Position numbers and translations under genes: made by a program. From assembly GCA_050250955.1 (NCBI GenBank), contig JBFWNR010000005.1, positions 191,911 to 255,910 of the forward strand: a stretch of DNA of 64,000 nucleotides, given 5' to 3'. The notes below the pieces were generated by a model. The model was not told where the DNA came from. It saw nothing but the letters and a program-made list of their open reading frames with translations, and made no database searches. The DNA is from Vicinamibacterales bacterium (GTDB lineage Bacteria > Acidobacteriota > Vicinamibacteria > Vicinamibacterales > UBA2999). Position 1 is the first letter of the stretch. The number at the start of each line of letters is the position of its first letter. Positions 7,764 to 43,472 of this stretch are shown here, piece after piece.

Positions 7764-8152
7764 CGACCGACGACCGCGTCCGCGCCATGGCCGCCGCCTA
7801 CACCGCGGCCTGGAACTCCGGCGACGCCGACGCCGTGGCCGCCTTCTACGCCCCGGAGGGGCAGATCGTCATCAACCGCGGCCAACCGTGGGTCGGCCAT
7901 CGAGGCGTCGCCGCGATGGCGGCCGGATTCTTCGCCGACGTGCCGGACCTCGCCTTGACCTGCGACGACGTGCGGTGCGCCGGCGATCACGTGGCCTACG
8001 TCTGGACGTTCACCGGAACGCACGCCGCCACCGGGAACCCGCTCCGTGTGTCCGGATGGGAGGAGTGGGATCTCGACCCGGAATTGAAGGTCGTCGCGTC
8101 ACGCGGGTGGTACGACGCCACCGACTACGAGCGTCAGGCGAAGGGACAGTGA
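7760..8152 (+). CDS. SnoaL-like / NTF2-fold protein
   Basis: ATGA overlap with the upstream gene. The 130-aa translation (AYTAAWNSGDADAVAAFYAPEG...) is typical of SnoaL-like polyketide-cyclase-fold proteins. Confidence 0.7.
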   Translation: MTTDDRVRAMAAAYTAAWNSGDADAVAAFYAPEGQIVINRGQPWVGHRGVAAMAAGFFADVPDLALTCDDVRCAGDHVAYVWTFTGTHAATGNPLRVSGWEEWDLDPELKVVASRGWYDATDYERQAKGQ

Positions 8153-8217
8153 CCCTGGGCCGTATCTGGTGCCACGCGGCGATACGCTGTCACGGTGTCG
8201 TCGGGCACGGCGTGCGA

Positions 8218-8223
8218 TAGACT
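8218..8223 (+). promoter_or_regulatory. -10-like TAGACT box 7 nt upstream of ATG 8231
   Basis: The sequence reads TAGACT-cgcgccc-ATG. Confidence 0.35.
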
Positions 8224-8230
8224 CGCGCCC

Positions 8231-26520: not shown

Positions 26521-28170
26521 TCATTGCCGCGCGGTCGGGCGTGCCGGCGGTGTCGCCGGTGCGCCCGGCTTGGGCGGCATCGCGTCCTTGCCGAACCGCG
26601 GCAGCTTCTCGTCGCGCATCGCCAGGTGGTAGACGGCAGCGGCGATCGCCATCGCCGACTGCTGCGCGTCGCTCTCGATGATCCGCTCGTAGGTGTCGAG
26701 ATTGGTGTGCCAGGTGTGGGTGCCGTACTCGATCGGGTCCTGCCCGACGCTGATGCCCGGCAGGCCGATCTCGTTGAACGAGGTGTGATCCGAGCCGCCG
26801 CGGGCCCGCGAGCGAGTGGTGTTGGCGCCCATCACCCCGTTGACGGCGAACGGCTCCAGCACCGGGCGCAGCACGTCGGCGGCCGTCGGCGGGCCGAACA
26901 CGGTCATGCCGCGGGCTTTGCCGGTGCCTGAGTCGATGTTGAAGTAGCCGGCGAAGTGTTCGTACTCCGGCTTGGGCGCCTCGAAGGTGCCGAAGTGCTG
27001 CGCCACGTAGGCCACCGAGCCGCGCAGGCCCTGCTCCTCGCCGCTCCACAGCGCCAGGCGGATGGTGCGCCGCGGCTGGACGCCGATCGCCTGCAGGATG
27101 CGGATCGCCTCGAGCATCACCGCCGAGCCGATGGCGTTGTCGGTGGCCCCAGTGGCGGCGTGCCACGAGTCGAGGTGGCCGCCGAGCATCACCACCTCCT
27201 GGGCCTTGTCGCTGCCCGGGATCTCGACCACCACGTTGTGCTGGGTGCGGCCCTCGGGGAAGGTGCGGTTGGCGATCGTCGCCTCGATCTCGACGATGCG
27301 TCCACTGGCCATCAGCCGGGCGATCCGGCCGTAGTCCTCGTTGCGCATCACGATCGTCGGCACCGCCTTGGCGACGTCGAACGTACGGTTGTTGAAGGCG
27401 CGGATCTGGCCGTGCTCGCGGCCGGCGTCGTTGATGCGCAGCGCCGCCCCGGCCTCGACCAGGAACACGTTCAGGGCCTCGGCGGCCTGGTCGGGCGTGA
27501 GCACGCCCTCGGCGCGGGCCGGCGTCGCCGGCGGGGTGAAGCCGCCGCCGCCGCCGCGGGCCGAGAACTGGGCCCGCGCGGCGTTGTCGTCGCGACGCTT
27601 GGCCGGCGGGTCGATGGTGACGTCGAGTTGCGCCGGCTTGCCGATCATCACGGCGCGGCCCTTGAGGCTGCCGCGCAGCCGGGCGAAGAACGTGTCGAGG
27701 TCCTTCTGGGTCGGGTTGTCCGGCGGCTCGACGATCACCGTGGACGCCGTGATCGTCCCGTTGGTGCCCGGCGTCCAGGCCAGCGCCTCGACGACCAGCG
27801 AATCCTTCACCGGCGTGACGAGATGGACCGCCGTCCGGTCGTTGAGCCAGCCGGGATGTCCGAAGTCCCACTCCTCGAGGTGGGCGTTCTTCAGGCCCCA
27901 GGTCGTCGCCTGCTGCATCACCCATTCCTGGGCGCCGCGCAGGTTGGGCGAACCGGTGAGCCGCGGACCGTACACGTCGGTGAGGACGTGCAGCGTGCGC
28001 ATGATCTGCGAGTGCTCGACGGCCTCGCGGCGGATCTTCCAGATGGCGTCGTGATCGACGCGTTCGGGCGCCGCCGGCCGCGCGGTCGACTGCTGAGCAG
28101 CCGGCACGGCCCGCAGCGCCGGGACCAGGATCAGGGCACCGGCAGTGACGGCGGCGAGAGCGATGCGCAT
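26521..28170 (-). CDS. M28-family aminopeptidase with a PA domain, secreted
   Basis: The start [21 protein letters not shown] is a signal peptide. The M28 metal motifs are [21 protein letters not shown] and [10 protein letters not shown]. The upstream 135 codons of the ORF are Pro/Arg/Ser junk. Confidence 0.85.
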
Positions 28171-28176
28171 CCGCGG

Positions 28177-28182
28177 ACTATA
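28177..28182 (-). promoter_or_regulatory. -10-like TATAGT box 6 nt upstream of ATG 28170 (leaderless-type promoter)
   Basis: The minus strand reads TATAGT-ccgcgg-ATG. Confidence 0.4.
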
Positions 28183-28279
28183 CAACGCCCGTTCGCCGCC
28201 GCCCTGCCGGCCGCCCCGGAATCGACGGCGACTCAGCCGCTGCCGGTGACCGCCTTCCTCGCTCGTCGCGCCCGCCGCC

Positions 28280-29509
28280 TCATCGCACCTCGAAGCGGCC
28301 GAGCGCGGCGGTGAAGGTGCGGCGCCCCGGGGCCGACTGGAAGGGCGGGAAGCCCGTGGGCGACACGGCGAACAACTCCACGACCACTTCGGTGTCGTTC
28401 GACGTGGCGTCGAGCAACTGCACGCTGCCATCGGCGGGCTGTCCGCTGCCGGCGGCGACGGCGGCGAGCCAGGCGTCGAGGTCGGCGGCGGTGGAAGCCT
28501 GCCCCGCCGCCGCGACGTCGAGCGCCAGACCGGCGTAGGCCACCGCGCCAGGCTCGAACTGGCGCCGCACCTCACCGGTGGGCGGTGCCGGCAGCTTGGC
28601 CGCGGACATGCGCAGGCCGCGCACCGCGCTCACGCCGCGTCCGTCCACACCGCCGAGCGACACGCGGAAGTTGCTGCGCAGCAGCAGCTTCTGCGCGCCC
28701 ACATTGACGCGCTGGCCGTCGCCTGGCGAGGTGCGAATGTCCTCGGGCACCACGACGAACGTGAACACGACCATGCCGTTGCTGGCGGCGTCGAGGTCCG
28801 AGACGGCGAACTCGCGCAGGAAGCCGCCCCGGATCGACATCTCGGTCAACGCGAGGCCGGCAAAGTCCACCTGGTACACCGTGACGTCGTGGCGGCTGGG
28901 CCGCTGCGCTGCGTCGTTGGCCCAGGCGAAGAGCTCCGCCGGCGCGGCGGGCGTCGCGAAGTAGCAGTCGTCGTACTCGATGCCGAGCACGACGTCCACG
29001 CAGCCGCCGAACGCCGACAGCGGAAACGTCGGTCCGCCGTCGATCGCCGCCAGAAACGTGCCGGCGTACGGTGTCGGTGCCGGCGTGGCCACCGCGGCCG
29101 CCGGTCCCGGCGGTCCCGCCGGCCCAGCCGGCCCGGTCGCTCCTGCCGGCCCCGCCGGCCCGGTGGCTCCGGCCGGGCCCTGAGGCCCTGGCTCACCCTG
29201 CGGTCCCGCCGGGCCGGCGGGTCCCGCCGGGCCCATCGGACCTGGCGCGCCGGGGGCGCCGTCGGCGCCGGGCTCGCCTTTGGGCCCGGCCGGCCCCTCG
29301 ACGTTCCACTGGATCCGGCGCTCGGTGGGCAGGCAGTTGTCCGACGCCGCCACGATGCGCACGACGCCGGCCAACCGGCCGACGCACGCGGTGATCACTC
29401 CGGACGACACCTGGGCCTCGGCGGCCGGAACACTCAGAAGCATGGCCGCGGCGAGCAACGTTGCGACGGTCACGCCCGCCGACACCGAACACAGGGACTG
29501 ACGACTCAT
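28280..29509 (-). CDS. secreted collagen-like triple-helix repeat protein with two tandem C-terminal phage tail-tube (T4 gp19 / Afp1)-like domains
   Basis: A GGAGAGG RBS precedes ATG 29509. The signal peptide is [32 protein letters not shown]. About 65 residues of G-X-Y repeats follow ([16 protein letters not shown]...GPAGPPGP, about 29103-29297). Two modules then resemble tube proteins: [20 protein letters not shown]...[17 protein letters not shown], and [20 protein letters not shown]...LDAWLAAV...[23 protein letters not shown]. Confidence 0.8.
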
Positions 29510-29664
29510 GGCACCTCTCCTCGAGACGAGGCCACACGACGGTGTGGGGCCGCACGGGCGGTTGGCCCGTGCACTTCGACAAGAGGGCATTCCCCGACGA
29601 TTTGCTCACCGGTGCCCGCGATCCACGCTTGCCGGGCCGCTCGCGGCTGCTCCAAGCTGTAGGC

Positions 29665-32250
29665 GTGCGCCCGGTCCAGGTGGCCCTCGCCGTCCTGACG
29701 CTGGCGGCTGGCCAGCCGGGGTCGGGGTTCGCCGATGCCTCAACCGACGTCGAGCAGGCGACCGCGGCGGCAGGGGCACCCGGGGCCGGCGCCCGTCTCC
29801 TCGCCCTGGCGCGAGCCCGCCGCCTGCTCGAGAGCGGCGCCCCACAGGAGGCCGAGCCCCTCCTCACCGCGCTGGTGGCGCACGCCGAGGCGGCCGGCGA
29901 TCAGCAGACCGCGAGTCTCGCCGAAGGCGCCCTGGGTCGGGCGCGCAGCATGGTCGGCGACGCCGACGGCGCGGCCCGCTGGTTCGCCGCCGCCGAGCGC
30001 CGCGCGCGGGCCCACGACCAGCCGCGGGCTCTGGCGTGGGTGCATCTGCTGCGTGGCACCGATGCCTTCGCGCGTGGCGACCGCGACAGCGCCCGGGCCG
30101 CCTGGGAAGCGGCGCGCGACGCCTTCGCCGCGATCGCCGATCTGGAGAACCAGGCCTATGTCGTCCGGGCTCTCGCGGCGGTGTCGGGTGCCGAGCGGGC
30201 CGAGCCGTTGCTGCTCAGCGCCATCGACCTGGCCCGGCGCGGCGGAGCGCCAGGCACCGAGGGGCTGGCGCTGCACTCGCTGGCCGACCTCGCCTACGCC
30301 CGCGGTCAGTGGAACCGCGCCCTCGCCCTGGCGACCGAGGCCCTGCCGCTCGTCGAACGCCACGGCACGCCGATCGAGATCGTGCGCGTGCACCTGAGCC
30401 TCGCCCGGCTGCATCGCTCGCACGGCGTCCGCGCCGACGCGCTGGCCGCCTACGAGCGGGCGCGGACGCGCCTGGCGAGCATCCCGCGCGGCCTGGGCGT
30501 CTCGGCCGCCTGGGCGCTGCTCAGTTCGGGCCTCAACAACCTCGACGACGTGCCGGGTGCCGTCGAGGCCGGCCGCTCCGCGCGGCGGCTCGCCGCCGAC
30601 TCGCGCAGTGCCGTGGACGCCACCGTGGCGGCCTACGTGCTGTCGGACGCCTTGACCCGCCACGGCGACGCCGCCGAGGCCATCGCGGTGATCGACGGCG
30701 TCGCCGCGCCCGATCGCAGCCTGGCGCACGGCCTGGCGGTGAACCGCGCCGACGCGCTGTCGCGCCTCGGCCGCCATGCCGACGCGCTCGAGGCGGCCGC
30801 CGCCGCGGACCGTCTCCCCGAGGACATCCTGGACGTGCTGCCACGCTACCCGGCCCTGCTCGCCGCGGTGCGCGCCCGCGCCGGCGCCATCGACCTGGCG
30901 CTGCGCGACTCGCGGCGCGCCGTCGAGGTGCTCGAGCGGCTGCGCAGCGGCACCGTGCCGGCCGACGCGCTGCGCGCCGGGTTCGACGAAAGCTTTCAGT
31001 GGGTGCACGCCCAGCACGTCCGGCTGCTGTCCGATCACGGCGACGCCGGCGAGGCTCTGGCCGCCACCGAACGCGCCCGGGCCCGCGCCTTCAGCGACCT
31101 GCTGGCCGGCCGCGAATTCGACGCGGTGGCCGACGCGCCGGCCGTGAACGTCGCCGCGATCGCCGCCGAAGCGCGGCGGTCGCAGTCCGTGGTCGTCGCC
31201 TACTGGACCGACGACGCGCACGTGCGGATCTGGGTGGTGACCGGCGACGGGCTGCGCGCCCATCGCCGTGTGCCGATGCCGTCGGGCCGGCTGACGGACC
31301 TGGTGGCCCGCACCTGGCGCGCCGAGGAACCGCTCGCCGGCAGCGGCCGCCCCTCGGCCTATCGCGAACTGCACGCGCTGCTCGTCCAGCCGGTGGCCGC
31401 GGCGATCACGGCGGCGCGTGTCACCCGGCTGACGATCGTGCCGCATGGCCCGCTGTTCCGCCTGTCGTTCGCCGGGCTGCAGCGCGCTGACGGCCGCTTC
31501 CTCGTCGAGGGCTTCGCCGTGCACTACGTGCCGTCCATCGCCACCGCGGTGGGACTGTCGTCGTCGCGCGAGGCGCCCCCCGATGCCCGGCGCGGCCTGG
31601 TCGTCGCCGATCCCGCCCTCGGCGACGCGCGCCGCGCCGAAGGCCTGCGGCCGCTGCCCGGGGCGGCCGCCGAGGGGCGCGCGGTGGCCCGCGTGCTCGG
31701 CGTCGAGGCCGCCGACGTGCTGGCCGGCGCGGCGGCCACCGAGTCAGGGGTGCGCGCCGCCGTGGCGGGACAGCGGGTCGTGCACTTTGCGACCCACGCC
31801 GTCGCCTCCGACCGCGAGCCGCTCGAGTCGTACCTCGCGCTGGCGCCGTCGGGCGACGCCGCCGACGACGGGCGGTTGACCGCCGCCGAAGTCTACGGGC
31901 TGTCGCTCGCCGCGGAGCTGGTCGTGCTCAGCGGGTGTCGGACGGCGTCCGGTGCGATCACCGGCGACGGCGTCGTCGGCCTGTCGCGGGCGTTCTTCGT
32001 CGCCGGCACGCCGTCGATCGTCGCCAGCTTGTGGGATCTGCCGGATCTCGCCGGCCGTGAACTGCTCCCGGCGTTCTACCGCGCGTGGCAGGGCGGCGGC
32101 AGCAAGGCCGACGCGCTGCGCCGGGCGCAGAGGGCGATGCTCGCCGGGCTGCGCGCCGGGCGGCACAGCGTCGAGACCCCGGCCGGCCGGGTGCCGGTCG
32201 AAGCGCATCCGGCGGTCTGGGCCGGGCTGGTGCTGCTGGGCCGCCCCTGA
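29665..32250 (+). CDS. TPR-repeat CHAT-domain (caspase-like) protease
   Basis: The N-terminal approximately 500 aa are Ala/Arg/Leu-rich, TPR-like helical repeats. The C-terminal CHAT domain has His in VVHFATHA (31795-31797) and Cys in VVLSGCRTASG (31936-31938), followed by GLSRAFFVAGTPSIVASLW. The start is uncertain (GTG 29665 or 29680). Confidence 0.85.
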   Translation: MRPVQVALAVLTLAAGQPGSGFADASTDVEQATAAAGAPGAGARLLALARARRLLESGAPQEAEPLLTALVAHAEAAGDQQTASLAEGALGRARSMVGDADGAARWFAAAERRARAHDQPRALAWVHLLRGTDAFARGDRDSARAAWEAARDAFAAIADLENQAYVVRALAAVSGAERAEPLLLSAIDLARRGGAPGTEGLALHSLADLAYARGQWNRALALATEALPLVERHGTPIEIVRVHLSLARLHRSHGVRADALAAYERARTRLASIPRGLGVSAAWALLSSGLNNLDDVPGAVEAGRSARRLAADSRSAVDATVAAYVLSDALTRHGDAAEAIAVIDGVAAPDRSLAHGLAVNRADALSRLGRHADALEAAAAADRLPEDILDVLPRYPALLAAVRARAGAIDLALRDSRRAVEVLERLRSGTVPADALRAGFDESFQWVHAQHVRLLSDHGDAGEALAATERARARAFSDLLAGREFDAVADAPAVNVAAIAAEARRSQSVVVAYWTDDAHVRIWVVTGDGLRAHRRVPMPSGRLTDLVARTWRAEEPLAGSGRPSAYRELHALLVQPVAAAITAARVTRLTIVPHGPLFRLSFAGLQRADGRFLVEGFAVHYVPSIATAVGLSSSREAPPDARRGLVVADPALGDARRAEGLRPLPGAAAEGRAVARVLGVEAADVLAGAAATESGVRAAVAGQRVVHFATHAVASDREPLESYLALAPSGDAADDGRLTAAEVYGLSLAAELVVLSGCRTASGAITGDGVVGLSRAFFVAGTPSIVASLWDLPDLAGRELLPAFYRAWQGGGSKADALRRAQRAMLAGLRAGRHSVETPAGRVPVEAHPAVWAGLVLLGRP

Positions 32251-32317
32251 CCCTGTCGCCGCCGCGTCGTGAGCAAATCCGTGTGACGCCCGCTCTACTG
32301 TCAGGTGACGCGCCCTC

Positions 32318-33172
32318 ATGACTCCACCTCATGCGCCCGGTGACGACCAGGGGCCCGCGCCCGCGGCCATCGTCCACCCGCCCGAGGACGCCTGGGTGCG
32401 CTTTGCCAGCCGCGACCTGGACCCGGCCGAGCGTGCATCGATGGCCGACCACATCGTGGCGTGCGCCGAGTGCGCCAGGGTCTACCGCGCGGTCGCGGAG
32501 GTGAGCGGCAGCGGCGCCGGGCTCGGGGCTGGCGATCGCACCGCGACCTCCTCGCGCTGGCGCGAACGGGTCGCCCTGGCTGCCTCGGTGGCCTTGGCCG
32601 TGGCCGGCTGGACCTGGCTGATTCCGGCCGCGCCGTCGGCGCCGTCAGCCGTGGCCCCGGCCGCGGGCCCGGTCGCCCCGCCGCCTTCGCCCTCACGCGC
32701 CGAGCCGCCGGCGTGGGCGGCCCTCGGCGAGCCGCCCGCCTTGCGGCTGCCGGCGTCGCTCACGCTGGCCGTCCGGGGATCGCGCGATGACGCCGACGCG
32801 TTCATGGCGGCTTTGGGGACGGCGATGACGCCCTATCGCGCCGGGCGCTTCGCCGAGGCGGCCACCGCGCTGGCCGCGGTCGCCGCCGCGCACCCGGCGG
32901 TGCCCGAGGGGTGGTTCTACCTCGGCGCGGCGCGGCTGCACGCCGGGATGCCCGCCGAGGCGATCGAGCCGCTGCGCCGGGCAGCCGCCTCCGCGGTCGT
33001 CGGCGACGACGCGTCGTGGTGGGAGGCCGTCGCGCTGGCCCGCGCCGGGCGCGACGACGACGCTCAGCGGGCGTTGCAGGCGCTGTGCGCGGCGGCCGGT
33101 CCGAACCGGGCGCGGGCGTGTGCCGCCGTCGACGCGGTGCGCCCGGCACCGTCCGCGCCGGCGACGCCGTAG
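32318..33172 (+). CDS. zf-HC2 (ZAS-type) anti-sigma factor with one TM segment and a TPR-like C-terminal domain
   Basis: The H-x3-C-x2-C motif is HIVACAEC. The TM segment is VALAASVALAVAGWTWLI. It lies 68 bp downstream of the CHAT gene on the same strand. Confidence 0.7.
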   Translation: MTPPHAPGDDQGPAPAAIVHPPEDAWVRFASRDLDPAERASMADHIVACAECARVYRAVAEVSGSGAGLGAGDRTATSSRWRERVALAASVALAVAGWTWLIPAAPSAPSAVAPAAGPVAPPPSPSRAEPPAWAALGEPPALRLPASLTLAVRGSRDDADAFMAALGTAMTPYRAGRFAEAATALAAVAAAHPAVPEGWFYLGAARLHAGMPAEAIEPLRRAAASAVVGDDASWWEAVALARAGRDDDAQRALQALCAAAGPNRARACAAVDAVRPAPSAPATP

Positions 33173-33666
33173 TCGTCGCGCAACCGGACCCGCAGATCGG
33201 CGATCCCGCGCGCCACCAGGTTGCGGGCCCGCTGGTAGGTCCAGCCGTAGAGATCCATCAGCTCGCGGACGTCGAACCCGGCCAGATGGCCCTGGACGGC
33301 CCGGCGGCGATCGATCGGCAGCGCGGCGATTGCCGCCCGCAGGGCCGCTCGCTGCTCGCGACGGTCGAGCGGGTCGGGGGCCGTCGCCCCGCACGCCTCG
33401 TCCACGCCGCCGCCGGCGATCAGCGTGTCGCGCACCCGCGTCCGGGCCATCGCCCGCACCGTTTCGCGCACCGCGGCGCGATGGAGGTAGGCCCCGGGAT
33501 GGTCGATCACCCGCCCGTGAGAGACCTGCGTCCACAGCCCGATTAACACGTCCTGCCGGATGTCGTCGAGGTCGCGCGCGGCGGGGCCGGCGGCCCGCCG
33601 CACCGCCCAGGCGATCAGCGTGCCGTAGCGATCGATGAGGGAACGGAACCGCTCGTCGCCGGACAT
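33064..33666 (-). CDS. ECF-type RNA polymerase sigma-70 family factor
   Basis: Region 2 is DDIRQDVLIGLW...HPGAYLHRAAVRE. Region 4 is ELMDLYGWTYQRARNLVARGIADLR. The start is either ATG 33666 (preceded by TAGGAT plus 7 nt) or ATG 33675. The 3' end overlaps the anti-sigma gene by 109 bp. Confidence 0.85.
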   Translation of the reverse strand: MSGDERFRSLIDRYGTLIAWAVRRAAGPAARDLDDIRQDVLIGLWTQVSHGRVIDHPGAYLHRAAVRETVRAMARTRVRDTLIAGGGVDEACGATAPDPLDRREQRAALRAAIAALPIDRRRAVQGHLAGFDVRELMDLYGWTYQRARNLVARGIADLRVRLRDDYGVAGADGAGRTASTAAHARARFGPAAAHSACNAR

Positions 33667-33673
33667 GCCCGCC

Positions 33674-33679
33674 ATCCTA
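33674..33679 (-). promoter_or_regulatory. -10-like TAGGAT box 7 nt upstream of ATG 33666 (leaderless-type promoter of the ECF sigma gene)
   Basis: The minus strand reads TAGGAT-ggcgggc-ATG. Confidence 0.4.
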
Positions 33680-33750
33680 GGCGCCGCCCGCCGCCCGCGG
33701 TATCCCCTGAACAGGGGAGGGTGACGCGGCTGCGGCCGGGGGTTGCGAGG

Positions 33751-35631
33751 CTACGCTCGCCGCACGTCCTGACGCCGGTCCGGCGGGCTGGCGTTGGCGC
33801 GCGTTCCGACCGGCAACACCAGCGTGACGATCGAGCCGGATGCGCCGCCCTCGAGGCGCAGCGATCCGCCCACCGCGGCCGCCCGCTGGCGCATGTTCCC
33901 GAGGCCGCGGCCGCTGCCGCGACGGGGCGCCTCGGCCGGGAAGCCGCGGCCGTTGTCGCGGACGCTCAGCCGGATTTCGGTGCCGTCGGCGGCCAGGCCG
34001 GCCGACACCACCACCTCGGTGGCGCCGGCATGCTTGAGCACGTTGGCGACCGCCTCCTGCACGATGCGCAGGACCTGCAGGATGTCGCGCGGCAGCAGAC
34101 CCGTGGTCGGCAGGTCGGCCACCTCCCAGCGCAGCGCCACGCCCTGGCGGGCCAGCCGCTCGGTGAGCCGGTAGCGCAGGTTGCCGAGCACCGTCACCAG
34201 GTCGCCGTCGGTCGGCTCGAGCGAGTCGATCATCAGCCGCAGGTCGTCGATGCACTCGTCCAGGAGCGCCGTCAGCTCGCCGGCGTCGAGCGTGCCGTGG
34301 CCGGCCAGCTGACGCGCCGCGATGAGCTGCGAGCCGACGCCGTCGTGCATGTCGCGCATGATCCGCTCGCGCTCGCCGGCCAGCGTCTCGGCGGCATAGG
34401 CGGCGCGCAGTTCGGCGTACGACCGCTCCAGTGCCGCCGCCTTGTCGCGCACCCGCGCCTCGAGCTCGACGTTGAGCGTCTCGGCGGCGCGGCGACCGGC
34501 CGCCACCTGGCCGAGCAGGTTCCAGAACACGGCGATGAACAGCACCGGCACGCCGTAGTGCAGGTTGAAGGGCTCGGCGTACGCGAACGCCCCCTGGCGG
34601 TTGAACCAGTCGTGGGCGCCGAGCCCGAGCACGAACAGCGCCGCACCGACCAGCAGGACGCTCTCGGCGGTGCGCGACCGGCGGGCGACGTCGAACAGGA
34701 TCTTGAACTCGTAGGCGCCGAGGAACAGCAGCGCGAGGAGCAGCGCGTTGGCGAGCCCGAAGATCTGGCCGAGGCCGGCCGCCCACAGCACCAGCGGGGC
34801 GAGGACGGCGTAGGTCAGCGCCGCCGCCTCGAGCCACGGCCGGCGCAGGCCGGCGAAGCGCAGCGCGAACATCATCATCGCCACCACGACCCAGACCAGC
34901 GAGGCGACGATGAGCACCTCCCAGACCAGCGTCGGCACCGGGATGTCCACGGCGAGCACCAGGGCGCTGTGCAGCGTCCAGCACATCGCGGCGAGGCCGA
35001 AGTAGCCGTAGGCGCTGGTCCAGCGCAGCACGAACCACGCCACCAGCACCAGCACGCCGAGCGCGAAGGTGATGCCGGTGGTGGCCTGCATGGCCGTGAC
35101 CTGGCGGAACACGTGCCGCTGCCAGCGCGCCTGCAGCACGTCCGGATCGCCGACGTAGACCTCCGACAGCCCGCCCTGGTTGTCGGGATAGGCGCGCAGG
35201 CGCAGGTGGAACACGTTGGTCCCGGGATGCAGCAGCGCGGCCGGGGCCACGTAGAGCTGCGGCCGGTACCACAGCCGGGTCAGTGGCTCGTCGAAGCGGC
35301 CGCCTTCGGCCAGCCGGGTGCCGTTGACGAACGGCCGGCCGACCATGCTGAGCCGCGGCACGTAGATCGCGGTGAGCGCCGGCGACGCCGGCACCTGGAA
35401 CTCGACGCGGTACCAGGCGTCGCCGCCGACCGCCGGCCGACGGCGGCTCCAGTCGTCGGGCAGGCTGACGGGCTGCCACGGGGCGTCGTCCGCCGGCGGC
35501 ACGTCGCCGCCGGTGAGCAGGAGCGCCGCTCGAGTGATGGCGGCCGGCGGGCCGGCGTCGTCGCCGCGGCCGCACCCCGCGGCGGCGAGGGCGAGCCCGA
35601 GCACCACGAGCAGCGCCGCGCCGGAGGGCAC
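33751..35631 (-). CDS. 7TMR-DISM-type sensor histidine kinase (HisKA_3 / NarX-LiaS class)
   Basis: It has an N-terminal extracytoplasmic domain, about 7 TM helices, the H-box ERERIMRDMHDGVGSQL, and an HATPase_c domain (NVLKHAGA...DNGRGF...GRGLGNM). The start is uncertain: GTG 35631 gives a lipobox-like LAAAGC, and ATG 35682 or 35670 would overlap the regulator gene. Confidence 0.85.
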   Translation of the reverse strand: MPSGAALLVVLGLALAAAGCGRGDDAGPPAAITRAALLLTGGDVPPADDAPWQPVSLPDDWSRRRPAVGGDAWYRVEFQVPASPALTAIYVPRLSMVGRPFVNGTRLAEGGRFDEPLTRLWYRPQLYVAPAALLHPGTNVFHLRLRAYPDNQGGLSEVYVGDPDVLQARWQRHVFRQVTAMQATTGITFALGVLVLVAWFVLRWTSAYGYFGLAAMCWTLHSALVLAVDIPVPTLVWEVLIVASLVWVVVAMMMFALRFAGLRRPWLEAAALTYAVLAPLVLWAAGLGQIFGLANALLLALLFLGAYEFKILFDVARRSRTAESVLLVGAALFVLGLGAHDWFNRQGAFAYAEPFNLHYGVPVLFIAVFWNLLGQVAAGRRAAETLNVELEARVRDKAAALERSYAELRAAYAAETLAGERERIMRDMHDGVGSQLIAARQLAGHGTLDAGELTALLDECIDDLRLMIDSLEPTDGDLVTVLGNLRYRLTERLARQGVALRWEVADLPTTGLLPRDILQVLRIVQEAVANVLKHAGATEVVVSAGLAADGTEIRLSVRDNGRGFPAEAPRRGSGRGLGNMRQRAAAVGGSLRLEGGASGSIVTLVLPVGTRANASPPDRRQDVRRA

Positions 35632-35641
35632 GCGGCAGTGG

Positions 35642-36277
35642 TCAGATGAGGCGTAGCCGGCTGGCCTCATACACCGCCTCACCGCGCGACGACACTTCCA
35701 GCTTGGCGTAGATGTTCTTGATGTGCGACGACACGGTGTGCGGCGAGATGGTGAGCAGCGCCGCGATCTCGGGGACGCGGTAGCCCTTCGACACCAGCGT
35801 CAGCACCTCGCGCTCGCGATCCGAGAGCGTCACCGACGTCTCCACCGGCCGCCGCGTCACCGCGGTGAAGCGTTGGAGCACGCGCCGGGCGATGGTCGGG
35901 TGGATCGGGCTGCCGCCGGCGCGCAGCAGCTCGATGGTGGCGATGAAGTCGTCGGGCAGGCTGTCCTTGAGCAGGTAGCCGGTGGCGCCGGCTTCGAGGC
36001 TGCGCATGACGTGCGCCTCGTCGCCGAACACCGTGACGACCATCGCGTCGAGGGTCGGATGCAGCCGGCGGGCCTCGCGGACCACGTCGGCGCCGTCGCC
36101 GTCGGGCAGCCCGAGATCGCAGAGCAGCACGTCGATCGGCCCGTGGCGGAGCGCCGTCATCGCCTCGGCGCAGCTCCCCACCGCGCCGGCCAGCGTGAAG
36201 CGCGGGCACGACCCGACGATTCCGGCGAAACGCTGCCGGAAGGTCGGATCGTCCTCGACGATGAGGATGCGCGTCAT
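35642..36277 (-). CDS. LuxR/NarL-family two-component response regulator
   Basis: The receiver domain reads MTRILIVEDDP...DVLLCDLGLPDGDG. The C-terminal HTH domain reads LSDREREVLTLVSKGYRVPEIAALLTISPHTVSSHIKNIYAKL. Confidence 0.9.
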   Translation of the reverse strand: MTRILIVEDDPTFRQRFAGIVGSCPRFTLAGAVGSCAEAMTALRHGPIDVLLCDLGLPDGDGADVVREARRLHPTLDAMVVTVFGDEAHVMRSLEAGATGYLLKDSLPDDFIATIELLRAGGSPIHPTIARRVLQRFTAVTRRPVETSVTLSDREREVLTLVSKGYRVPEIAALLTISPHTVSSHIKNIYAKLEVSSRGEAVYEASRLRLI

Positions 36278-36356
36278 CGACTGCGGCACACAGACCCCGC
36301 GGCCGGCCTCAGCATGGCACATCGGCGCGCGGCCGTGGCGATCGCCGGCGGCACGG

Positions 36357-38810
36357 TCAGGGCAGACGCGTGAAGTTGGCGACGCGGTTGCTCTGCGGGT
36401 TGGTGAACTGCCGGAATGACGGCGAGAACGTCGCGCCCGGGAGACTCGGCGTCACGCGGTAGCTACCCGTCGGTGGCGTGTCCAGCACGTAGAACCCCAG
36501 CGCGTCGGTGGTCGTCGACGCCGAGAACCCCTGAGTGGCGTAGACAGTGACGCCTGGCACGGGCTGTCCGGCCCTGTCCAGAATTCGCCCCGACACCACG
36601 TACGTACCGAGCTTGGCGACGAATCCGTCGCTCGCGCCGCCACCTGGTGTCTTCTGGAGCACGCTGTCTCCCGCAACCGGGATGCCGTTGCCGTCGAGAG
36701 TGCTGATCCCGCCGACGAACACGTTGCCAACCGTATCGACCGTCACGCCGAGCAGTCGCTCGTTACTGGTCCCGCCGTAGAACGTCGAAAACCCGACTGC
36801 CGTTCCCGTCTGGTTCAACAGCGTGACGAATCCGTCGGTGCCGCCTGATAACGTTGCATCGAATGTAGGCGACGAAACCGGAAAGTCACTCGACGTCGTG
36901 ATACCGCCGATCACGACGACGTGTCCAGGCGGGCACGGGAATCCCGGTACGCACTGCCGTGGCTGAAGGGCGAGCGCGAAGGCGGCGTCGTTGGCGCTCC
37001 CGCCGAGCAGTGTCGCGTACGCCACCGTACCGAGTGTCAACGCGAGCTTCGCGACGAAGCCGTCCAAAGGGCCTCCCAGGGTCTGGTCGAATGCGTTGGG
37101 GGTGGTCGGAAAGTTCGTTGACGCCGTGAGGCCGGCGACGTACACGAAGCCGTCCGTGCCCCATGCGACGCTGTGGATGACATCGCTGCCCGCGCCGCCC
37201 AGGTACGTCGCGCCAATCAGCCCGCTCCCGGTCGTGTTCAGCAACGCCACGACGCCGTCCGCGTCGAGGTTGAACGTGGAGTCGAAGGCGGTCGCAGGCA
37301 CCGGGAAGTCGTATGACGTGGTTTCGCCGGCGACGATTGCGGCACTGCCTGCCAGCGCGATACTGACGTACCCCCCCTCGACGCCGGTGCCGCCGAGGAA
37401 TGTCGAATAGATGGCGTTGGCGCCGGTCGGGTCGAGCTTGGTGACGAAGAAGTCGCTATTGCCGTTGTAGCTCGTGTCGAATGCTCCGGGCGTCGTCGGA
37501 AAGTCGGTCGAGAAGGTGACACCCGCTACGTAGGCGTTGCCGGCGACATCGACTGCGACGTCAGCGCCCGCGGCGCTGCCCCCGTCCATGTAGCCGCCCA
37601 GGAAGGTCGAGTACTCGAGAGCGGCGCCATTCGCGGTGAGTTTGGCGACGAAGGTCTTCACGCCGAACCCGCTCGCGTAGAACATGGTATCGAACGCGCC
37701 CGGGGTCACGGGGAAATCGGAAGAATAGGTATCGCCGACGACGTGCGCCCGCCCACCAGCGTCGACGGCGAGGCGCGGCTGGAAATCGCTCAAGCTCCCC
37801 CCCAGGTACGTGGAGTAGATGGCAGTCGTGCCAGCGGCGTTCAGCTTCGTGACGAACACGTCTGGGGAGGCCGGCCCCACACCGTCGCCGACGGGGTCAA
37901 AGGCCCCTGTCGTCGTCGGGAAGTCCACCGAAGTGGTCGTTCCTGCAACGTAGACGTTTCGCGCCCCATCGACCGCGACGTCAATCACCGAATCCCGGTC
38001 CGATCCGCCCAGATAGGTCGAGAACGCCAGCTGCGACAGGTTCGGGTCGATGACCAGCGTGCGGCTGTCGTCGTAGGCGCCGACACGGAACCCGACCCGC
38101 GCCGGTCCGCGCAGCTCGTAGCCGCTGTCGACGGGGCTCCTGACCCCGCCGTCCTCCTGGTAGGTGGTGGGGGCGTCCTGTTCGACGACGCCGGCGTCGG
38201 TGTGGATGCGCAGCGTGCCCGCCTCCGTGACCTCCAGCCCGGTCGCACCGTCGATGTCGAACTCGACGGTCGAGGGATCGACGGCGGGAGCGACGACGAC
38301 GTCGTACTCGAGCGTGCCGCTGTCGCTTGCGTACCACACGACGTCGACGCCGGGACGCAGATTGCCCTGCCGGACCCGGCCATAGGTGCGGGCGCCGGTG
38401 ACCCAGTTGGCCGGGTCGCGCCCCTTCAGGTAGTTGACGCGATGGGCCAGCGGCGCCTCGCCCGTGGGTGCCGCATCGCCGCGCGCGCCGACCATCGCCA
38501 GACGCAGCGCCACCCCGCGCTCCGGCGCGGCGGCCGGCGGCTCCGCGGTGCCCACCGGCAGTGCCAGCGTCACGTCGCGGTCGGTGACGAACACCGAGAA
38601 ATTGGCGCCCCGGGCGACGAAGCGGGCCCGGGCGTCGTGCTGCCCCCGGTTTTCCTCGAAGGCGACGTTCCGGCCGCTGCCGCGCAGGGCGCGAGCCGGG
38701 TCGCTGCCAGCGGTGCCGGCGTCGTGTGGCCCGCCGAGCCGGCCGGACGCGGGCCCGAACGACAGCACGCCCGCGGCCAGCATCCCGATCGTCATCGTCA
38801 CTCGTGTCAT
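36357..38810 (-). CDS. secreted SBBP beta-propeller-repeat protein with a C-terminal carboxypeptidase-regulatory-like domain
   Basis: The unit ...G.S.DFPTTPGAFD... is repeated more than 8 times. It has a signal peptide. The C-terminus is VVSGRILDRAGQPVPGVTVYAT. A GGGGGAA RBS lies upstream. Confidence 0.8.
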   Translation of the reverse strand: MTRVTMTIGMLAAGVLSFGPASGRLGGPHDAGTAGSDPARALRGSGRNVAFEENRGQHDARARFVARGANFSVFVTDRDVTLALPVGTAEPPAAAPERGVALRLAMVGARGDAAPTGEAPLAHRVNYLKGRDPANWVTGARTYGRVRQGNLRPGVDVVWYASDSGTLEYDVVVAPAVDPSTVEFDIDGATGLEVTEAGTLRIHTDAGVVEQDAPTTYQEDGGVRSPVDSGYELRGPARVGFRVGAYDDSRTLVIDPNLSQLAFSTYLGGSDRDSVIDVAVDGARNVYVAGTTTSVDFPTTTGAFDPVGDGVGPASPDVFVTKLNAAGTTAIYSTYLGGSLSDFQPRLAVDAGGRAHVVGDTYSSDFPVTPGAFDTMFYASGFGVKTFVAKLTANGAALEYSTFLGGYMDGGSAAGADVAVDVAGNAYVAGVTFSTDFPTTPGAFDTSYNGNSDFFVTKLDPTGANAIYSTFLGGTGVEGGYVSIALAGSAAIVAGETTSYDFPVPATAFDSTFNLDADGVVALLNTTGSGLIGATYLGGAGSDVIHSVAWGTDGFVYVAGLTASTNFPTTPNAFDQTLGGPLDGFVAKLALTLGTVAYATLLGGSANDAAFALALQPRQCVPGFPCPPGHVVVIGGITTSSDFPVSSPTFDATLSGGTDGFVTLLNQTGTAVGFSTFYGGTSNERLLGVTVDTVGNVFVGGISTLDGNGIPVAGDSVLQKTPGGGASDGFVAKLGTYVVSGRILDRAGQPVPGVTVYATQGFSASTTTDALGFYVLDTPPTGSYRVTPSLPGATFSPSFRQFTNPQSNRVANFTRLP

Positions 38811-38850
38811 GGCTTCCCCCGGGAACTCGGTTCGAGATCTTGCCGGCCGG

Positions 38851-41800
38851 TCACCACACCACCGGCACGTTGGTGAGCGTCACGAACGCCAGGTACGACG
38901 CGCTGCCGCTCGCCGACAGTTCGACGGCGCCGTTCGGGGCGATCACCTCGAGGGTGAACAGATCGCGGCCGCTGCGGCTGGTGGCGTCAGTGACGCCAAT
39001 CCGGCAGGCGTAGCCGTGGATGGGCGGCGCGCCGGCCTGAGCGGGTGCCTTGACGCCGTAGCGGGTGACGAGCGTCGTGCGGTTGCCGCTGCGGTCCACG
39101 CTGGCGACCGCGCCGCAGGCGTACTGCGCGGCCTGCAGCGCCACGACCGCGCCGCCGCCGAGCAGATCGCCGGCCGCGGTGCGGGCGGCCGCGAAGGCCA
39201 GCACGCCCGGTCCGGCGGCGCTCGCGAACAGCGCCCCGCCGGTGGTGCCGACGGCGAAGACCGGCCGCGTCCGCGAGACGCGCACGGTGGCGGTGCGGTC
39301 CTGGGCCACGGTGAGGTAGCAGCGGCCGTTGGCCTGGGCGTCGCAGCCGGTCCAGCCGGCGACGAACGGCCCGGTCAGCAGGTTGCCGCCGGGATCGACG
39401 TCGATCACCACGGTGCTGCCGGCGCGCGGCGCGAACAGGCAGTCGGCGGCGTTGGCGCAGGGTGGCGCCGAGGGCAGCAGCGGATCGCTGATACCGTCGG
39501 GCAAGGTCAGGTAGCGCGCGGTGGCCCGGACGGTGATGGTGGCCGGCAGGCCGCCGAGGCCCTCGACGCGCAGGTGGAGCTGCACGGTGTCGGCCCGCGC
39601 CGTGACGGTGACGCGCCGTTCGTCGGGCGAGGAGCGGTTGCCGCTGTCGTCCACGACCACGAGCCGGACGGTGTGTTCGCCGTCACCGAGCGGATAGGCC
39701 GCGGCGGTGAACGTGAACGACGCCGTGTCGGTGACCACGGGCGCGAAGGCGTCGAGCGTCCACTCGTAATGGACGATCGCGCCCCCGATGTCGGTCGAGT
39801 CGGCGCCGGAGACCGGCAGGTCCTCGCCTTCCCCGATCGTCGTCGGCGCCGAGAGCACGGCCGTGGGGTTGACGGAGTCGCCGACGACCTCCACCTGCCG
39901 CACGTCAGGAGCCGACACCTGGCCGGCATCGTCGACGACCGTCAGGCGCACGGTGTGGAGGCCGACGCCGAGCGCGTACGGCGGGGCCGTGAAGGTGAAC
40001 GACGGGCTGGTGGTCTCGACAGCAGCGGCGCTGTCGAGCTGCCAGACGTAGCGGACGATCATGCCGACTTCATCGAAGGAACCGCCGCCTGAGACGACCA
40101 GCGGGGAGCCGAGGTCGATCGCGGGCAGCGCGTCGAGGACCGCGGTCGGCACCGTGTCGGCGACGACCAGCACCTGGTGCGGTGCGGGCGCAGACGGGTT
40201 GCCGCTCGTGTCGACGACCGTCAGCGTGACGACGTGCGGTCCGGGTACGAGCGGGTACGACCCGTAGGCGAACGTGAAGACGGCCTCGCTGGTCTCGACG
40301 ACGGTGCCGCCGTCGATCTGCCAGCGATACGCGGCAATCGCGCCGCCGGGATCGAACGAGCCGGCGCCCGACACGGTCAGCGGGTGTCGCTGGACGATCT
40401 GGACCGGCCCGGTGATGACGGCCGTGGGATTGACGACGTCGCCGATGACCTGGACCTGGCGCCCATCCGGTGCTGAGCGGTTGCCGCTGTCGTCCACGAC
40501 CACCAGCGCGACGGTGTGCGGCCCCGGCGTCGGCGGGTAACTGGTGGCGACGAAGGTGAACGACGGCGTCGTGGTCTCGACCGGCGGGAAGGCGTCGAGC
40601 GTCCACTCGTAGCGGACGATCGTCCCGCCGACGTCGAACGAGTTGTCACCGGCGACCGTGAGATCCTGGCCGACGGCGATCGAATCCGGCGCGGTGAGCA
40701 GCGCGGTCGGATTGGTGGTGTCGGCCACGACGCTCAGCGGGACCACCACGGTCCGCGCCTCACCGGCCGCGAGCGTACCGCGCAGCTCGATGCCGCCGCT
40801 GCCCTCGCTCGACAGCGTGGTCACCTGCGCCATGTAGTCGCCGCCCAGCCCGGTGAGCTGCAGCGTGAGCGGCGGCTCCAGGTTGCCGAGGATCCAGCCC
40901 ATGCCGTCGGCATCGCCGCTCCAGAAGCTGCCGGGGATCTCGGCGAGCGGGCCGGTCGCCGCCGTGTAGCCGAGGCGGCGGCCGAGGCCGTCCACGAGGA
41001 AGCCCTCGACCGGGTCGAGCACCAGGTTCGCGCAGCCGGTGACGGCGCAGGCGATGTCGCCGACACCGAACGCTGCCTGCCCGGTCGAAATGGACGTCGG
41101 CCCGACGCCGAGCAGCGTCAGGATCTCCTGCTGGACCTCGGGATTGGACATCAGGGCGCCGTGTCCCACCGAGCCCGTCGCCGGGCCTGCCGTGAAGGGC
41201 TTCAAGGTGACTCGCGTGTCGGTGAGGAACTGACCGGCCGCCGACTCGATCGGCACCGTGCCGTCGCCGGCGTCGGACTGGCTGATGTCGACGTAGTAGT
41301 CGCCGTTGACCACGGTGTGCGCGACGACGTCGCTGAACGACACGGCCGATCCCGGGAGGGCGCCCGACGCAGTACGTCGTTCGGCGTGCACGGGCGTGGT
41401 GCCGCCGTTGGTGCCGTAGATGACCGTGACCGTGGCCAGATCGGCGAACGCATTGGGGTCGTCGCCGACGTTGACGAGGCGGTCGAGCCCGGCGTTGAGG
41501 TCGAGGACGAAGCTGTTCCGTTGCTGCGTGTCCAGGTTGATGGTCGAGGGGCCCTCGCCCAGGTCGAGGAAGTCGTAGGTGGCGAGCAGCGCCCGGGCCG
41601 ACGGAATGTACTTGTCGATGAAGCAGATCTTCGGTCCGCTCGGACACTCACTCGGTGATTCCAGCATGGCCCTGGTGATCGTGTGGTCCGGCCCGGGAAT
41701 CTGCTGACCTTTCTCCATGACCTGCACGTAGGCCCGGTAGACGATCTTCGAGAGCACCAGTTGGTAGGCGACGTCGATGCCCCAGTTGTCCTGGAGAACG

Positions 41801-42885: not shown

Positions 42886-42965
42886 ACCCTGACGAGAGGC
42901 GCCGCTCGGCCGGTTTGCTCACTCCGCGGGGCGCACGCCGAGCGCCGGGGTTTGAACACCCGTTC

Positions 42966-42971
42966 TACAAT
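42966..42971 (+). promoter_or_regulatory. -10-like TACAAT box 6 nt upstream of ATG 42978 (leaderless-type promoter)
   Basis: The sequence reads TACAAT-cccgcc-ATG. Confidence 0.45.
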
Positions 42972-42977
42972 CCCGCC

Positions 42978-43472
42978 ATGGCCCCGCCCCCGCCCCAGCC
43001 GTCGCGGCTCCACCTGGCGCTCACCGTCAACGGCGAGCCGGCCGAGACGGCCGTGGATCCGGCCAAGACGCTGCTCGAGGTGCTGCGCGAGGACCTGCAG
43101 CTCACCGGCACCAAGCACGGCTGCGAGCTGGGGGAGTGCGGGGCCTGCGCTGTGCTCCTGGACGGCGAGCCGGTGCTGTCGTGCCTGGTGCTGGCCGTCG
43201 AGTGCCCCGGGCGGGAGGTGCGGACCGTGGAAGGGCTGGCCCGGGACGGGCGGCTCGACCCGCTCCAGGAGGCGTTCGCCGACCTGGGCGCGGCGCAGTG
43301 CGGCTACTGCACGCCCGGCATCCTGGTGACGGCGCGGGCCCTGCTCGACCGCGAGCCGCAGCCGACGCGCGAGCAGATCCGCGAGGCGCTGGCCGGCAAT
43401 CTCTGCCGTTGTACCGGGTATCTGCAGATCCTGGAGGCGGTCGAGGCCGCCGCGCTCGCGAGGTCCAGGTGA
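42978..43472 (+). CDS. [2Fe-2S]-binding small subunit of a xanthine-oxidase-family enzyme (HcrC-like)
   Basis: The plant-type ferredoxin motif is CELGECGAC...C. The second cluster motif is QCGYCTPG...CRCTGY. Confidence 0.9.
   Translation: MAPPPPQPSRLHLALTVNGEPAETAVDPAKTLLEVLREDLQLTGTKHGCELGECGACAVLLDGEPVLSCLVLAVECPGREVRTVEGLARDGRLDPLQEAFADLGAAQCGYCTPGILVTARALLDREPQPTREQIREALAGNLCRCTGYLQILEAVEAAALARSR

Follow-up and report, generated by a model that had tools for sequence, protein, structure and literature searches.

The window considered here, i.e. the whole 64,000-nucleotide (nt) stretch of Vicinamibacterales DNA that was analysed (72% G+C), carries the gene of a tetratricopeptide repeat (TPR) protein with a caspase-fold CHAT domain, followed by the gene of a zinc-binding anti-sigma (ZAS) factor, on which the gene of a sigma factor of extracytoplasmic function (ECF) type converges. 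A first-pass annotation, made from the sequence letters, had proposed that the three products constitute a protease-controlled extracytoplasmic signalling module, with a neighbouring collagen-like protein as its possible output. The placement of all four genes (lengths in amino acids, aa) was as given there:

29665..32250, plus strand: TPR-CHAT gene, GTG start, 861 aa
32318..33172, plus strand: anti-sigma gene, 284 aa, after a 67-nt gap behind the CHAT gene
33064..33675, minus strand: ECF sigma gene, 203 aa, convergent on the anti-sigma gene
28280..29509, minus strand: collagen-like gene, 409 aa from the ATG at 29509, divergent from the CHAT gene

The closest named relative of the window is a metagenome-assembled genome (MAG) of Vicinamibacterales (Acidobacteriota), locus L004, with 75% identity over the CHAT protein.

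Conserved linkage of the three genes

Conservation of the linkage between CHAT, anti-sigma and sigma genes had been named beforehand as a test of the proposal. It was surveyed by look-ups of CHAT-homologue genes, one genome scan, one metagenome scan and iterative profile searches of six-frame open reading frames (ORFs). The genome contig scan was swamped by unrelated cyanobacterial CHAT proteins and contributed L004, L005, L006, L011 and L031 as useful loci. Beyond the window, complete triads were found in 22 metagenomic or MAG loci, which span Vicinamibacterales, Bryobacteraceae, Terriglobia and unbinned metagenome contigs and display four gene orders:

Order A, sigma then anti-sigma then CHAT: L005 (Bryobacteraceae), L006, L011 (Terriglobia), L031 (Vicinamibacteraceae), L089, L090, L091, L097, L102
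Order B, CHAT then sigma then anti-sigma: L001, L002, L084, L085, L087, L088
Order C, CHAT then anti-sigma, with sigma convergent: the window, L003, L004
Order D, CHAT convergent on sigma then anti-sigma: L105, L106, L125, L131

Among loci with a CHAT identity of at least 40% and enough flank, both partners are present throughout (16/16). Survival of the triad through four rearrangements is strong evidence for functional coupling, and it is very probable that CHAT protein, anti-sigma factor and sigma factor constitute one signalling module. A coincidental adjacency of functionally unrelated genes could appeal to more distant exported TPR-CHAT genes (e.g. L094, L096, L098) that have neither a sigma nor an anti-sigma gene nearby; it is effectively refuted, and of negligible probability, given the retention of 22 triads across several acidobacterial orders and the existence of fused forms. 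Because of those distant genes, however, the association belongs to one CHAT clade, not to all CHAT proteins.

The encoded proteins and their relatives

The GTG start of the CHAT gene is also that of public protein collection entry P0001, which matches with 100% identity and coverage. Pfam CHAT is found with E 1.4e-70, covering model positions 5-288 of 289, and the protein divides as follows:

29665-29733, plus strand: signal-peptide-like residues 1-23
residues ~40-480: about ten TPR-like helical pairs
residues ~505-861: CHAT caspase-fold domain with His711 (31795-31797) and Cys758 (31936-31938)

The catalytic residues had been assigned correctly, in HFATHA and LSGCRT, and the dyad is intact. 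Its state in a proper alignment was a further test set in advance; in alignment A1, His711 and Cys758 are invariant across 22 CHAT orthologues with identities of 34-100%. By sequence inspection, the N-terminus, MRPVQVALAVLTLAAGQPGSGFA followed by D, is built like a Sec signal peptide, with the charge, the hydrophobic core and the small-x-small pattern. A hydrophobic N-terminal segment recurs in all CHAT relatives with a resolved N-terminus except that of L002, the sequence itself not being conserved. Because of this signal-peptide-like start in nearly all relatives, the CHAT protein should be exported to the periplasm, i.e. to the compartment that would hold the C-terminal domain of the anti-sigma factor.

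The AlphaFold2 (AF2) model of the CHAT protein has a predicted local distance difference test score (pLDDT) of 84.6, with low confidence for residues 1-37 and the remainder modelled well. Its best Foldseek matches in the PDB are structures of DdvA from Myxococcus xanthus (8RW5 and 8ROT_A, E 6e-16), ahead of separase and Csx29 (8D9G_A and 8EEY_B, E ~2e-11). Global TM-scores are low (0.36-0.38) since the domain orientation differs, and identity to DdvA in the structural alignment is only 17%. PDB sequence searches with the CHAT protein (phmmer, and a 22-sequence profile) gave nothing or generic TPR proteins only; DdvA was reached solely by the fold search and via the fused intermediate P0030 described below.

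The anti-sigma factor consists of the following parts:

32375-32473, plus strand: cytoplasmic three-helix ZAS domain with His20, His45, Cys49 and Cys52
32570-32623, plus strand: predicted transmembrane helix (hydrophobic), residues 85-102
residues 103-130: variable Pro/Ala linker, disordered at 100-130 in the AF2 model
32714-32779, plus strand: conserved segment W133...R153-G154
residues 156-274: predicted periplasmic 3-TPR domain with the conserved Cys257/Cys268 pair

As had been annotated, HIVACAEC lies at residues 45-52, a single hydrophobic helix is present and TPR matches occur in the C-terminal half (residues 173-257). Pfam zf-HC2 gave no match at E <= 0.01, and the zinc-ligand and transmembrane motifs are found in 23/23 family members. 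All four zinc ligands are invariant in the family alignment A2 (25 sequences), as are W133, A134, L136, P140, L144, P145, L150, R153 and G154 and the disulfide-like pair Cys257/Cys268. The arrangement H-x24-H-x3-C-x2-C is the ligand spacing of ChrR-type zinc anti-sigma domains. The likeness to the ChrR/RsrA class I ZAS domains thus lies in this invariant motif and in the three N-terminal helices of the AF2 model (pLDDT 82.6), which also places the transmembrane helix at 79-99 and ends in a seven-helix 3-TPR domain. It differs from that class in that Pfam zf-HC2 misses the domain and in its C-terminal partner, the periplasmic 3-TPR domain with the cysteine pair. Foldseek relates the 3-TPR domain to the small peptide-binding TPR modules SycD, PcrH and YbgF. 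The family amounts to at least 100 clusters at 50% identity (100 representatives at E <= 1e-30 out of 1.84 billion searched), and the top 150 representatives all are stand-alone proteins of 132-456 aa. Two members, one at L149 629-1999 (P0286, 456 aa) and P0357 (454 aa), have an N-terminus longer by ~170 aa, which may reflect fusion of sigma and anti-sigma factors or merging of gene calls. More distant representatives stand on contigs too short for neighbouring genes to be seen.

The sigma factor reaches 30 bits with Sigma70_r2 against a Pfam cut-off of 24, and TIGR02937 (sigma70-ECF) matches over its full model at residues 10-165 with 42.0 bits, just below the cut-off of 42.9. Its PDB sequence match is CnrH (E 0.0014), no match to DdvS being detectable there. 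By these matches it is a divergent ECF (group IV) sigma factor. The main text of the ECF classification paper does not mention CHAT. The box TAGGAT-N7-ATG (33679-33664, minus strand), which had been taken for a promoter of the sigma gene, is instead an AGGA Shine-Dalgarno-like site; AGGA precedes a second in-frame ATG (33666) by 8 nt, and from this start the protein would have 200 aa. Convergence on the anti-sigma gene with overlapping 3' ends was confirmed, the overlap being 109 bp (33064-33172); L003 has one of 85 bp (10229-10313). The overlap gives the window sigma factor a C-terminal tail of ~35 aa past region 4, which orthologues in orders A and B do not have, and convergent transcription across it could cause antisense interference between the partners.

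The search with the CHAT protein also returned proteins that combine zf-HC2 and CHAT, namely P0030, P0033 and P0111. P0030 (1141 aa) and P0033 (1151 aa) carry ZAS motif, transmembrane segment, TPR and CHAT in one chain and have about the length of the anti-sigma factor plus the mature CHAT protein. In profile-profile comparison (hhalign), the anti-sigma family is alignable to the N-terminal ~300 residues of the fusions (96.9% probability, E 1.5e-10, 247 columns). Such a comparison was needed, as BLASTP of the anti-sigma factor against P0030/P0033 covers the ZAS motif region only (E ~0.03). The CHAT protein matches the C-terminal parts of P0030 and P0033 with E 7e-31 and 2e-28, and P0030 in turn matches M. 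xanthus DdvA (8ROT_B) with E 2.4e-9. An ORF upstream of the gene of P0033 (L147) was considered as a sigma gene and dropped, Pfam not recognising it as such.

DdvA is a ZAS-TM-TPR-CHAT anti-sigma factor, TM being the transmembrane segment, of the ECF sigma factor DdvS (PMC6061681, PMC11506125). Further traits of DdvA are an arrow-shaped dimeric assembly and a CHAT active site without the three-helix motif. Since the fusions are collinear with anti-sigma factor plus CHAT protein and DdvA is the best fold match of the latter, the locus is, as far as homology and modelled fold can tell, a split, two-gene version of a DdvA/DdvS-like system. Both have an ECF sigma factor and a single-pass ZAS anti-sigma factor with a TPR-CHAT His-Cys module on the periplasmic side; the gene of the cognate ECF sigma factor adjoins that of the anti-sigma factor, here in all 22 triads; and the proposed logic of CHAT as site-1 protease followed by RseP is the same. 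Whereas TPR-CHAT is covalently part of DdvA, it is here a separate, apparently exported protein of 861 aa beside a 284-aa anti-sigma factor with the 3-TPR domain only. The host belongs to Acidobacteriota rather than Myxococcota, and the apparent regulon consists of secreted structural and hydrolytic proteins instead of an anti-phage island (CBASS, type III-B CRISPR). The authors of these studies found fused DdvA-like proteins in Myxococcota and in one Comamonas only, and make no mention of a split form in Acidobacteriota (PMC6061681, PMC11506125).

The second precedent is Craspase, in which the TPR-CHAT protein Csx29 cleaves Csx30, an inhibitor of the ECF-like CASP-sigma (PMC10028731). The first-pass annotation knew of no characterised CHAT-dependent ECF pathway, a statement outdated by Craspase (PMC10028731) and by DdvA/DdvS (PMC6061681, PMC11506125). 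Shared with Craspase is a TPR-CHAT protein of the same fold class, which in Craspase controls an ECF-type sigma factor through cleavage of an inhibitor. In contrast, Craspase is cytoplasmic and activated by RNA-guided Cas7-11, and Csx30 is no ZAS transmembrane anti-sigma factor; here the CHAT protein appears to be exported, and no cas genes or defence systems were seen, a PADLOC scan of the module and its neighbours giving zero hits. The actinobacterial group ECF54, whose genomic surroundings include CHAT, subtilase and carboxypeptidase genes and for which proteolytic control was proposed (PMC8999054), likewise has an ECF sigma gene conserved beside a CHAT-domain gene, but was described without an anti-sigma factor, whereas a ZAS anti-sigma factor always is present in the acidobacterial triads.

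Candidate promoter motif and secreted gene products

Comparison of operon upstream regions yielded a bipartite motif of fixed spacing on the strand opposite to CHAT, GTGAGCA[AG]-N14-[CG]CCTC[CT], summarised as GTGAGCAA-N14-GCCTCT with GTGAGCAA as proposed -35 and GCCTCT as proposed -10 element. The window holds two exact copies, both on the minus strand (29582-29609 and 42895-42922), compared to 0 in 100 shuffles. In 1.75 Mb (window plus fetched loci) there are 11, compared to a mean of 0.115 and a maximum of 2 in 200 shuffles, and 5 of these 11 had not been used in defining the pattern. With the exception of the L102 copy, each exact copy is followed after 9-120 nt by a gene that begins with a signal-peptide-like segment. 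Three copies of the motif concern the window:

P1, GTGAGCAAATCGTCGGGGAATGCCCTCT, 29582..29609, minus strand: exact, -35 GTGAGCAA and -10 CCCTCT, with the collagen ATG (29509) 73 nt downstream
P2, GTGAGCAAATCCGTGTGACGCCCGCTCT, 32269..32296, plus strand: one mismatch in the -10 element, between the CHAT and anti-sigma genes, with the anti-sigma ATG 21 nt downstream
P3, GTGAGCAAACCGGCCGAGCGGCGCCTCT, 42895..42922, minus strand: exact, 9 nt before the ATG of a 1344-aa gene at the head of a five-gene run

Genes preceded by the motif are the following:

collagen/gp19 proteins: window, L001, L002, L084
collagen-like protein: L003
1344-aa lipase-like/PKD protein: window
reprolysin-like metalloprotease and a second secreted protein: L088
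DUF7948 propeller protein: L003, motif 118 nt upstream
with one mismatch: 1372-aa beta-helix protein in L097; proteins of >1500 aa in L083 and L085

Intergenic copies, exact or nearly so, are confined to loci with the close sigma family of the window, loci with a divergent sigma factor being without the motif. From this co-occurrence we infer that the motif would be the cognate ECF promoter of the window sigma factor. It is quite improbable that the motif is not the promoter of this sigma factor and instead serves another regulator, or drives the CHAT operon in the opposite direction. In orders B and C it lies in a divergent intergenic region with CHAT also nearby, and the copy in L102 stands 24 nt upstream of the sigma gene, pointing away from it with no ORF behind. 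Yet the reading direction is fixed at L001 3535, L088 11536 and 13522, L097 8381 and window 32269, where the opposite side offers only the 3' end of a gene; no other regulator is common to these loci; and the motif disappears where the sigma factor diverges. An 8-mer and a 6-mer at fixed spacing are, moreover, the typical layout of ECF promoters.

Two other readings of the same letters were rejected: in the CHAT direction (RGAGGS-N14-TTGCTCAC) several copies have only a gene 3' end on that side, and TTGCTC as a sigma-70 -35 element has inconsistent spacing to -10-like sequences.

With the motif as promoter of the window sigma factor, P1, which has counterparts at the same place in L001, L002, L003, L084 and L085, would drive the collagen/gp19 gene and probably also the M28 peptidase gene behind it. 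The position of P2 suggests sigma-dependent expression of the anti-sigma factor and, thus, negative feedback; in an alignment of its gap with L003 and L004, only the blocks GAGCAAATCC and GCTCTA are conserved. Both the collagen/gp19 gene and the 1344-aa gene behind P3 are proposed members of the regulon.

Within the sigma coding sequence of order A and B loci, ~330 nt upstream of the anti-sigma start, stands a look-alike of the motif, GTGAGCAAACCATCGACCACCCCGCCTCC, whose spacing is 15 nt and which encodes REQTIDHPAS:

L084 8775-8803, L085 8806-8834, L087 2304-2332, L097 4355-4383
L001 9849-9877, L002 9738-9766, L088 8611-8639, L102 4424-4452

Its Gln codon, followed by a rare TAT Tyr codon, is the rare CAA in 7/7 independent loci, whereas the adjacent CHAT genes use CAA for 16.6% of their Gln residues. 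This suggests selection of GTGAGCAAACCATCGACCACCCCGCCTCC at the DNA level, possibly as an internal sigma-dependent promoter for the anti-sigma gene. The window sigma gene has lost the look-alike, and the motif P2 precedes the anti-sigma gene instead.

Further genes around the module, apart from the collagen-like gene, are these (Pfam assignments):

26521..28170, minus strand: M28 peptidase gene, co-oriented with the collagen gene and 109 nt downstream of it
33751..35682, minus strand: histidine kinase (HisKA_3) gene
35642..36322, minus strand: NarL/LuxR-type response regulator gene
36357..38810, minus strand: DUF7948 / SBBP beta-propeller / CarboxypepD_reg gene
38851..42885, minus strand: 1344-aa lipase-like/PKD gene

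The collagen-like protein, divergent from CHAT as had been annotated, exceeds the Pfam cut-offs for Collagen (37.2 bits) and, in two stretches, for Phage_T4_gp19 (PF06841; 36.7 bits, cut-off 28.2); the TIGR02241 match is weak, with 27.5 bits for a cut-off of 62.4. It displays a signal-peptide-like N-terminus, an N-terminal Cys-containing cap, a GXY stretch and a C-terminal gp19-like domain of tail-tube fold. Its C-terminal region thus resembles the T4 gp19 tail-tube family (PF06841/TIGR02241) above the PF06841 threshold, whereas the signal-peptide-like start, the Cys cap and its nature as a chromosomal, apparently secreted protein of Acidobacteriota set it apart. PHROG matches are confined to the GXY repeat, and the neighbours examined include neither sheath or baseplate genes nor any others of a phage or injection system. 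A Sec-exported protein of tail-tube fold without such neighbours is unusual. About 20 acidobacterial homologues (P0113-P0129) share signal peptide, Cys cap (VITACV...), collagen GXY stretch, sometimes PEGA, and gp19-like domain.

In L002 and L084 the orthologue of the collagen-like gene likewise diverges from CHAT, and that in L001 has its own motif copy. The suggestion that this protein is a regulon output is supported by the motif 73 nt upstream; the protein is, however, only one of several kinds of secreted cargo, and homologues elsewhere are unlinked to the triad. The homologues in L144-L146 have no adjoining triad, those in L144 and L145 also lack the motif, and L146 has a two-mismatch copy 77 nt upstream, which is within chance. 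In L004, 37 nt are missing at ~7780 relative to L003 6755-6795, so that the divergent collagen-like gene is without its 5' leader and the motif without its -10 half; the gene also looks disrupted. A genuine loss of the promoter or an artefact of the assembly would account for the gap.

The M28 peptidase (Peptidase_M28, 3.2e-37; start 28170) also has a signal-peptide-like N-terminus. Its pairing with the collagen gene recurs in L001 (561-2210) and L003 (3879-5528); in L146 an M28 gene (7999-9366) lies near the collagen/gp19-like gene as well, the triad being absent, and the two proteins may work together. The 1344-aa protein combines a signal-peptide-like N-terminus with a lipase-like alpha/beta-hydrolase region (weak LCAT and Palm_thioest matches) and at least four PKD domains (PKD_4, 2.4e-26). 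It heads an uninterrupted minus-strand run of lipase-PKD, DUF7948, response regulator, histidine kinase and sigma genes, with gaps of 40, 34, -41 and 75 nt. L003 holds the equivalent run from DUF7948 to sigma with an exact motif copy at its head, and read-through from P3 may allow autoregulation of the sigma gene. Relatives of kinase and response regulator were found by tblastn in L003 and L004 only (85-91% identity). Between the kinase stop and the sigma start stands a conserved intergenic block:

33697..33721, minus strand: CCCTCCCCTGTTCAGGGGATACCGC, 25 nt with inverted repeat CCCCTG/CAGGGG

The block is identical in the three type-C loci (window, L003, L004), with diverging flanks, and CCCTCCCCTGTTCAGGGGATACCGC may be a site for the adjacent NarL/LuxR-type regulator or the promoter of the sigma gene; in either role it would couple sigma expression with the two-component system. 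Scans for Rfam families and tRNAs were negative, and a scan of 28000-43200 for sigma-70 promoters and intrinsic terminators gave nothing useful in DNA of this G+C content.

It might be argued that the CHAT protein is itself an output, maturing or degrading secreted regulon proteins (e.g. the collagen-like protein) or other periplasmic substrates and merely being co-expressed. Orders A and B indeed place CHAT in an apparent operon with sigma and anti-sigma genes, and motif-bearing secreted-protein genes adjoin it. Nevertheless, this is improbable: natural fusions of CHAT with the anti-sigma factor, DdvA included, indicate a physical and functional link, and the secreted cargo varies from locus to locus with the triad remaining constant.

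A putative regulated-proteolysis switch

The proposed mechanism is as follows. The ECF sigma factor would be held at the membrane by the cytoplasmic ZAS domain of the single-pass anti-sigma factor, whose small periplasmic 3-TPR domain would guard it against intramembrane proteolysis. The exported TPR-CHAT protein would act as periplasmic sensor, binding a probably proteinaceous signal via its long TPR superhelix, and most likely as site-1 protease that clips the anti-sigma factor between membrane and TPR domain; the cut would fall within the Pro/Ala linker or within the conserved segment ...L-x-L-x-x-R-G. Next, a site-2 protease of RseP type, along with cytoplasmic proteases, would complete the degradation, and the freed sigma factor would guide RNA polymerase to GTGAGCAA-N14-GCCTCT promoters of secreted-protein genes, namely collagen/gp19-like plus M28 peptidase and lipase-PKD plus DUF7948 propeller. 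The motif copy before the anti-sigma gene would provide negative feedback, and minus-strand read-through may reach the sigma gene. The model adopted here shares with the sigma-E system (RseA/DegS/RseP) a single-pass anti-sigma factor whose periplasmic domain is removed by a signal-activated site-1 protease before site-2 cleavage. It differs in its site-1 candidate, a cysteine protease of caspase fold that carries a TPR sensor, in place of a PDZ serine protease, in that the anti-sigma factor is of ZAS type with a TPR domain, and in the linkage of the protease gene to the sigma operon.

A protease role of the CHAT protein is favoured because of its invariant dyad, the shared compartment, the fused relatives and the DdvA and Craspase precedents. 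Regarding the cut site, R153-G154 is attractive as an Arg-specific site, and two chained low-confidence alignments put it near position 128 of the DdvA linker, which faces the active site. The extracytoplasmic module of the first-pass annotation gains from the fused ZAS-TM-TPR-CHAT relatives and the structural match to DdvA, its proteolytic half, cleavage of the anti-sigma factor by CHAT, being what we infer.

Several findings weigh against this model, in addition to the distant CHAT genes without partners, the unlinked collagen/gp19 homologues and the L102 motif copy described above. AF2 models the R153-G154 segment as ordered and packs it against the TPR domain instead of leaving it exposed. 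In the fused relative P0111 both dyad residues are replaced (HVTAAA for H.ATHA, VLDEAG for LSGCRT), which makes it, judged from its sequence, a pseudo-protease version and indicates that a non-catalytic role can suffice in some lineages. To our knowledge, no periplasmic TPR-CHAT protein has been shown to cleave anything. The CHAT domain of DdvA has been proposed, not shown, to act as site-1 protease in trans across the dimer (PMC6061681, PMC11506125); the variants H862A and C907A behaved like wild type and no autoproteolysis was found on phage infection (PMC11506125). Removal of TPR-CHAT makes DdvA an RseP substrate, which counts among the precedents in favour of the model; the domain is a steric block to RseP (PMC11506125).

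Hence, the main competing explanation is a sensor or scaffold without proteolysis: the TPR-CHAT protein would bind the TPR domain of the anti-sigma factor non-covalently and shield it from the site-2 or another protease until a ligand dissociates the two, the dyad being vestigial or otherwise used. It draws on the steric block and the mutants without phenotype in DdvA, on the retention of the domain in P0111 despite loss of both catalytic residues, and on the resemblance of the anti-sigma 3-TPR domain to peptide-binding modules. That the dyad stays invariant across the 22 orthologues, even at 34% identity, speaks for a catalytic function in this clade, however, and other TPR-CHAT proteins such as Csx29 and separase are active proteases; the explanation is considered unlikely, if a serious contender.

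The regulated-proteolysis switch as a whole is regarded as the best explanation, with belief and doubt in balance, and that CHAT is the site-1 protease of the anti-sigma factor is held at barely this level. A wider reading is put forward more tentatively: if an exported caspase-fold protease acts in trans as the site-1 protease dedicated to a ZAS anti-sigma factor, Acidobacteriota would possess a new and widespread class of ECF activation pathway. This class would have GTGAGCAA-N14-GCCTCT as a promoter code of its own and would control a variable secretome, collagen-like proteins of phage tail-tube fold among it. Precedent exists in DdvA and Craspase; new are the split variant, its wide occurrence in Acidobacteriota, the candidate promoter code and a regulon of secreted proteins rather than defence genes.

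The ~290-aa anti-sigma family, at present unnamed ("hypothetical protein" with TPR hits only), could now be annotated. With protease and substrate as separate proteins, which can be mixed, mutated and titrated in a way that the single chain of DdvA does not offer, the question of site-1 cleavage by CHAT becomes directly testable in vitro, and the motif provides a concrete regulon prediction of secreted collagen-like, peptidase, lipase and propeller proteins. The same logic as in DdvA/DdvS would thus operate as a two-gene system across Acidobacteriota, which are among the most abundant soil phyla.

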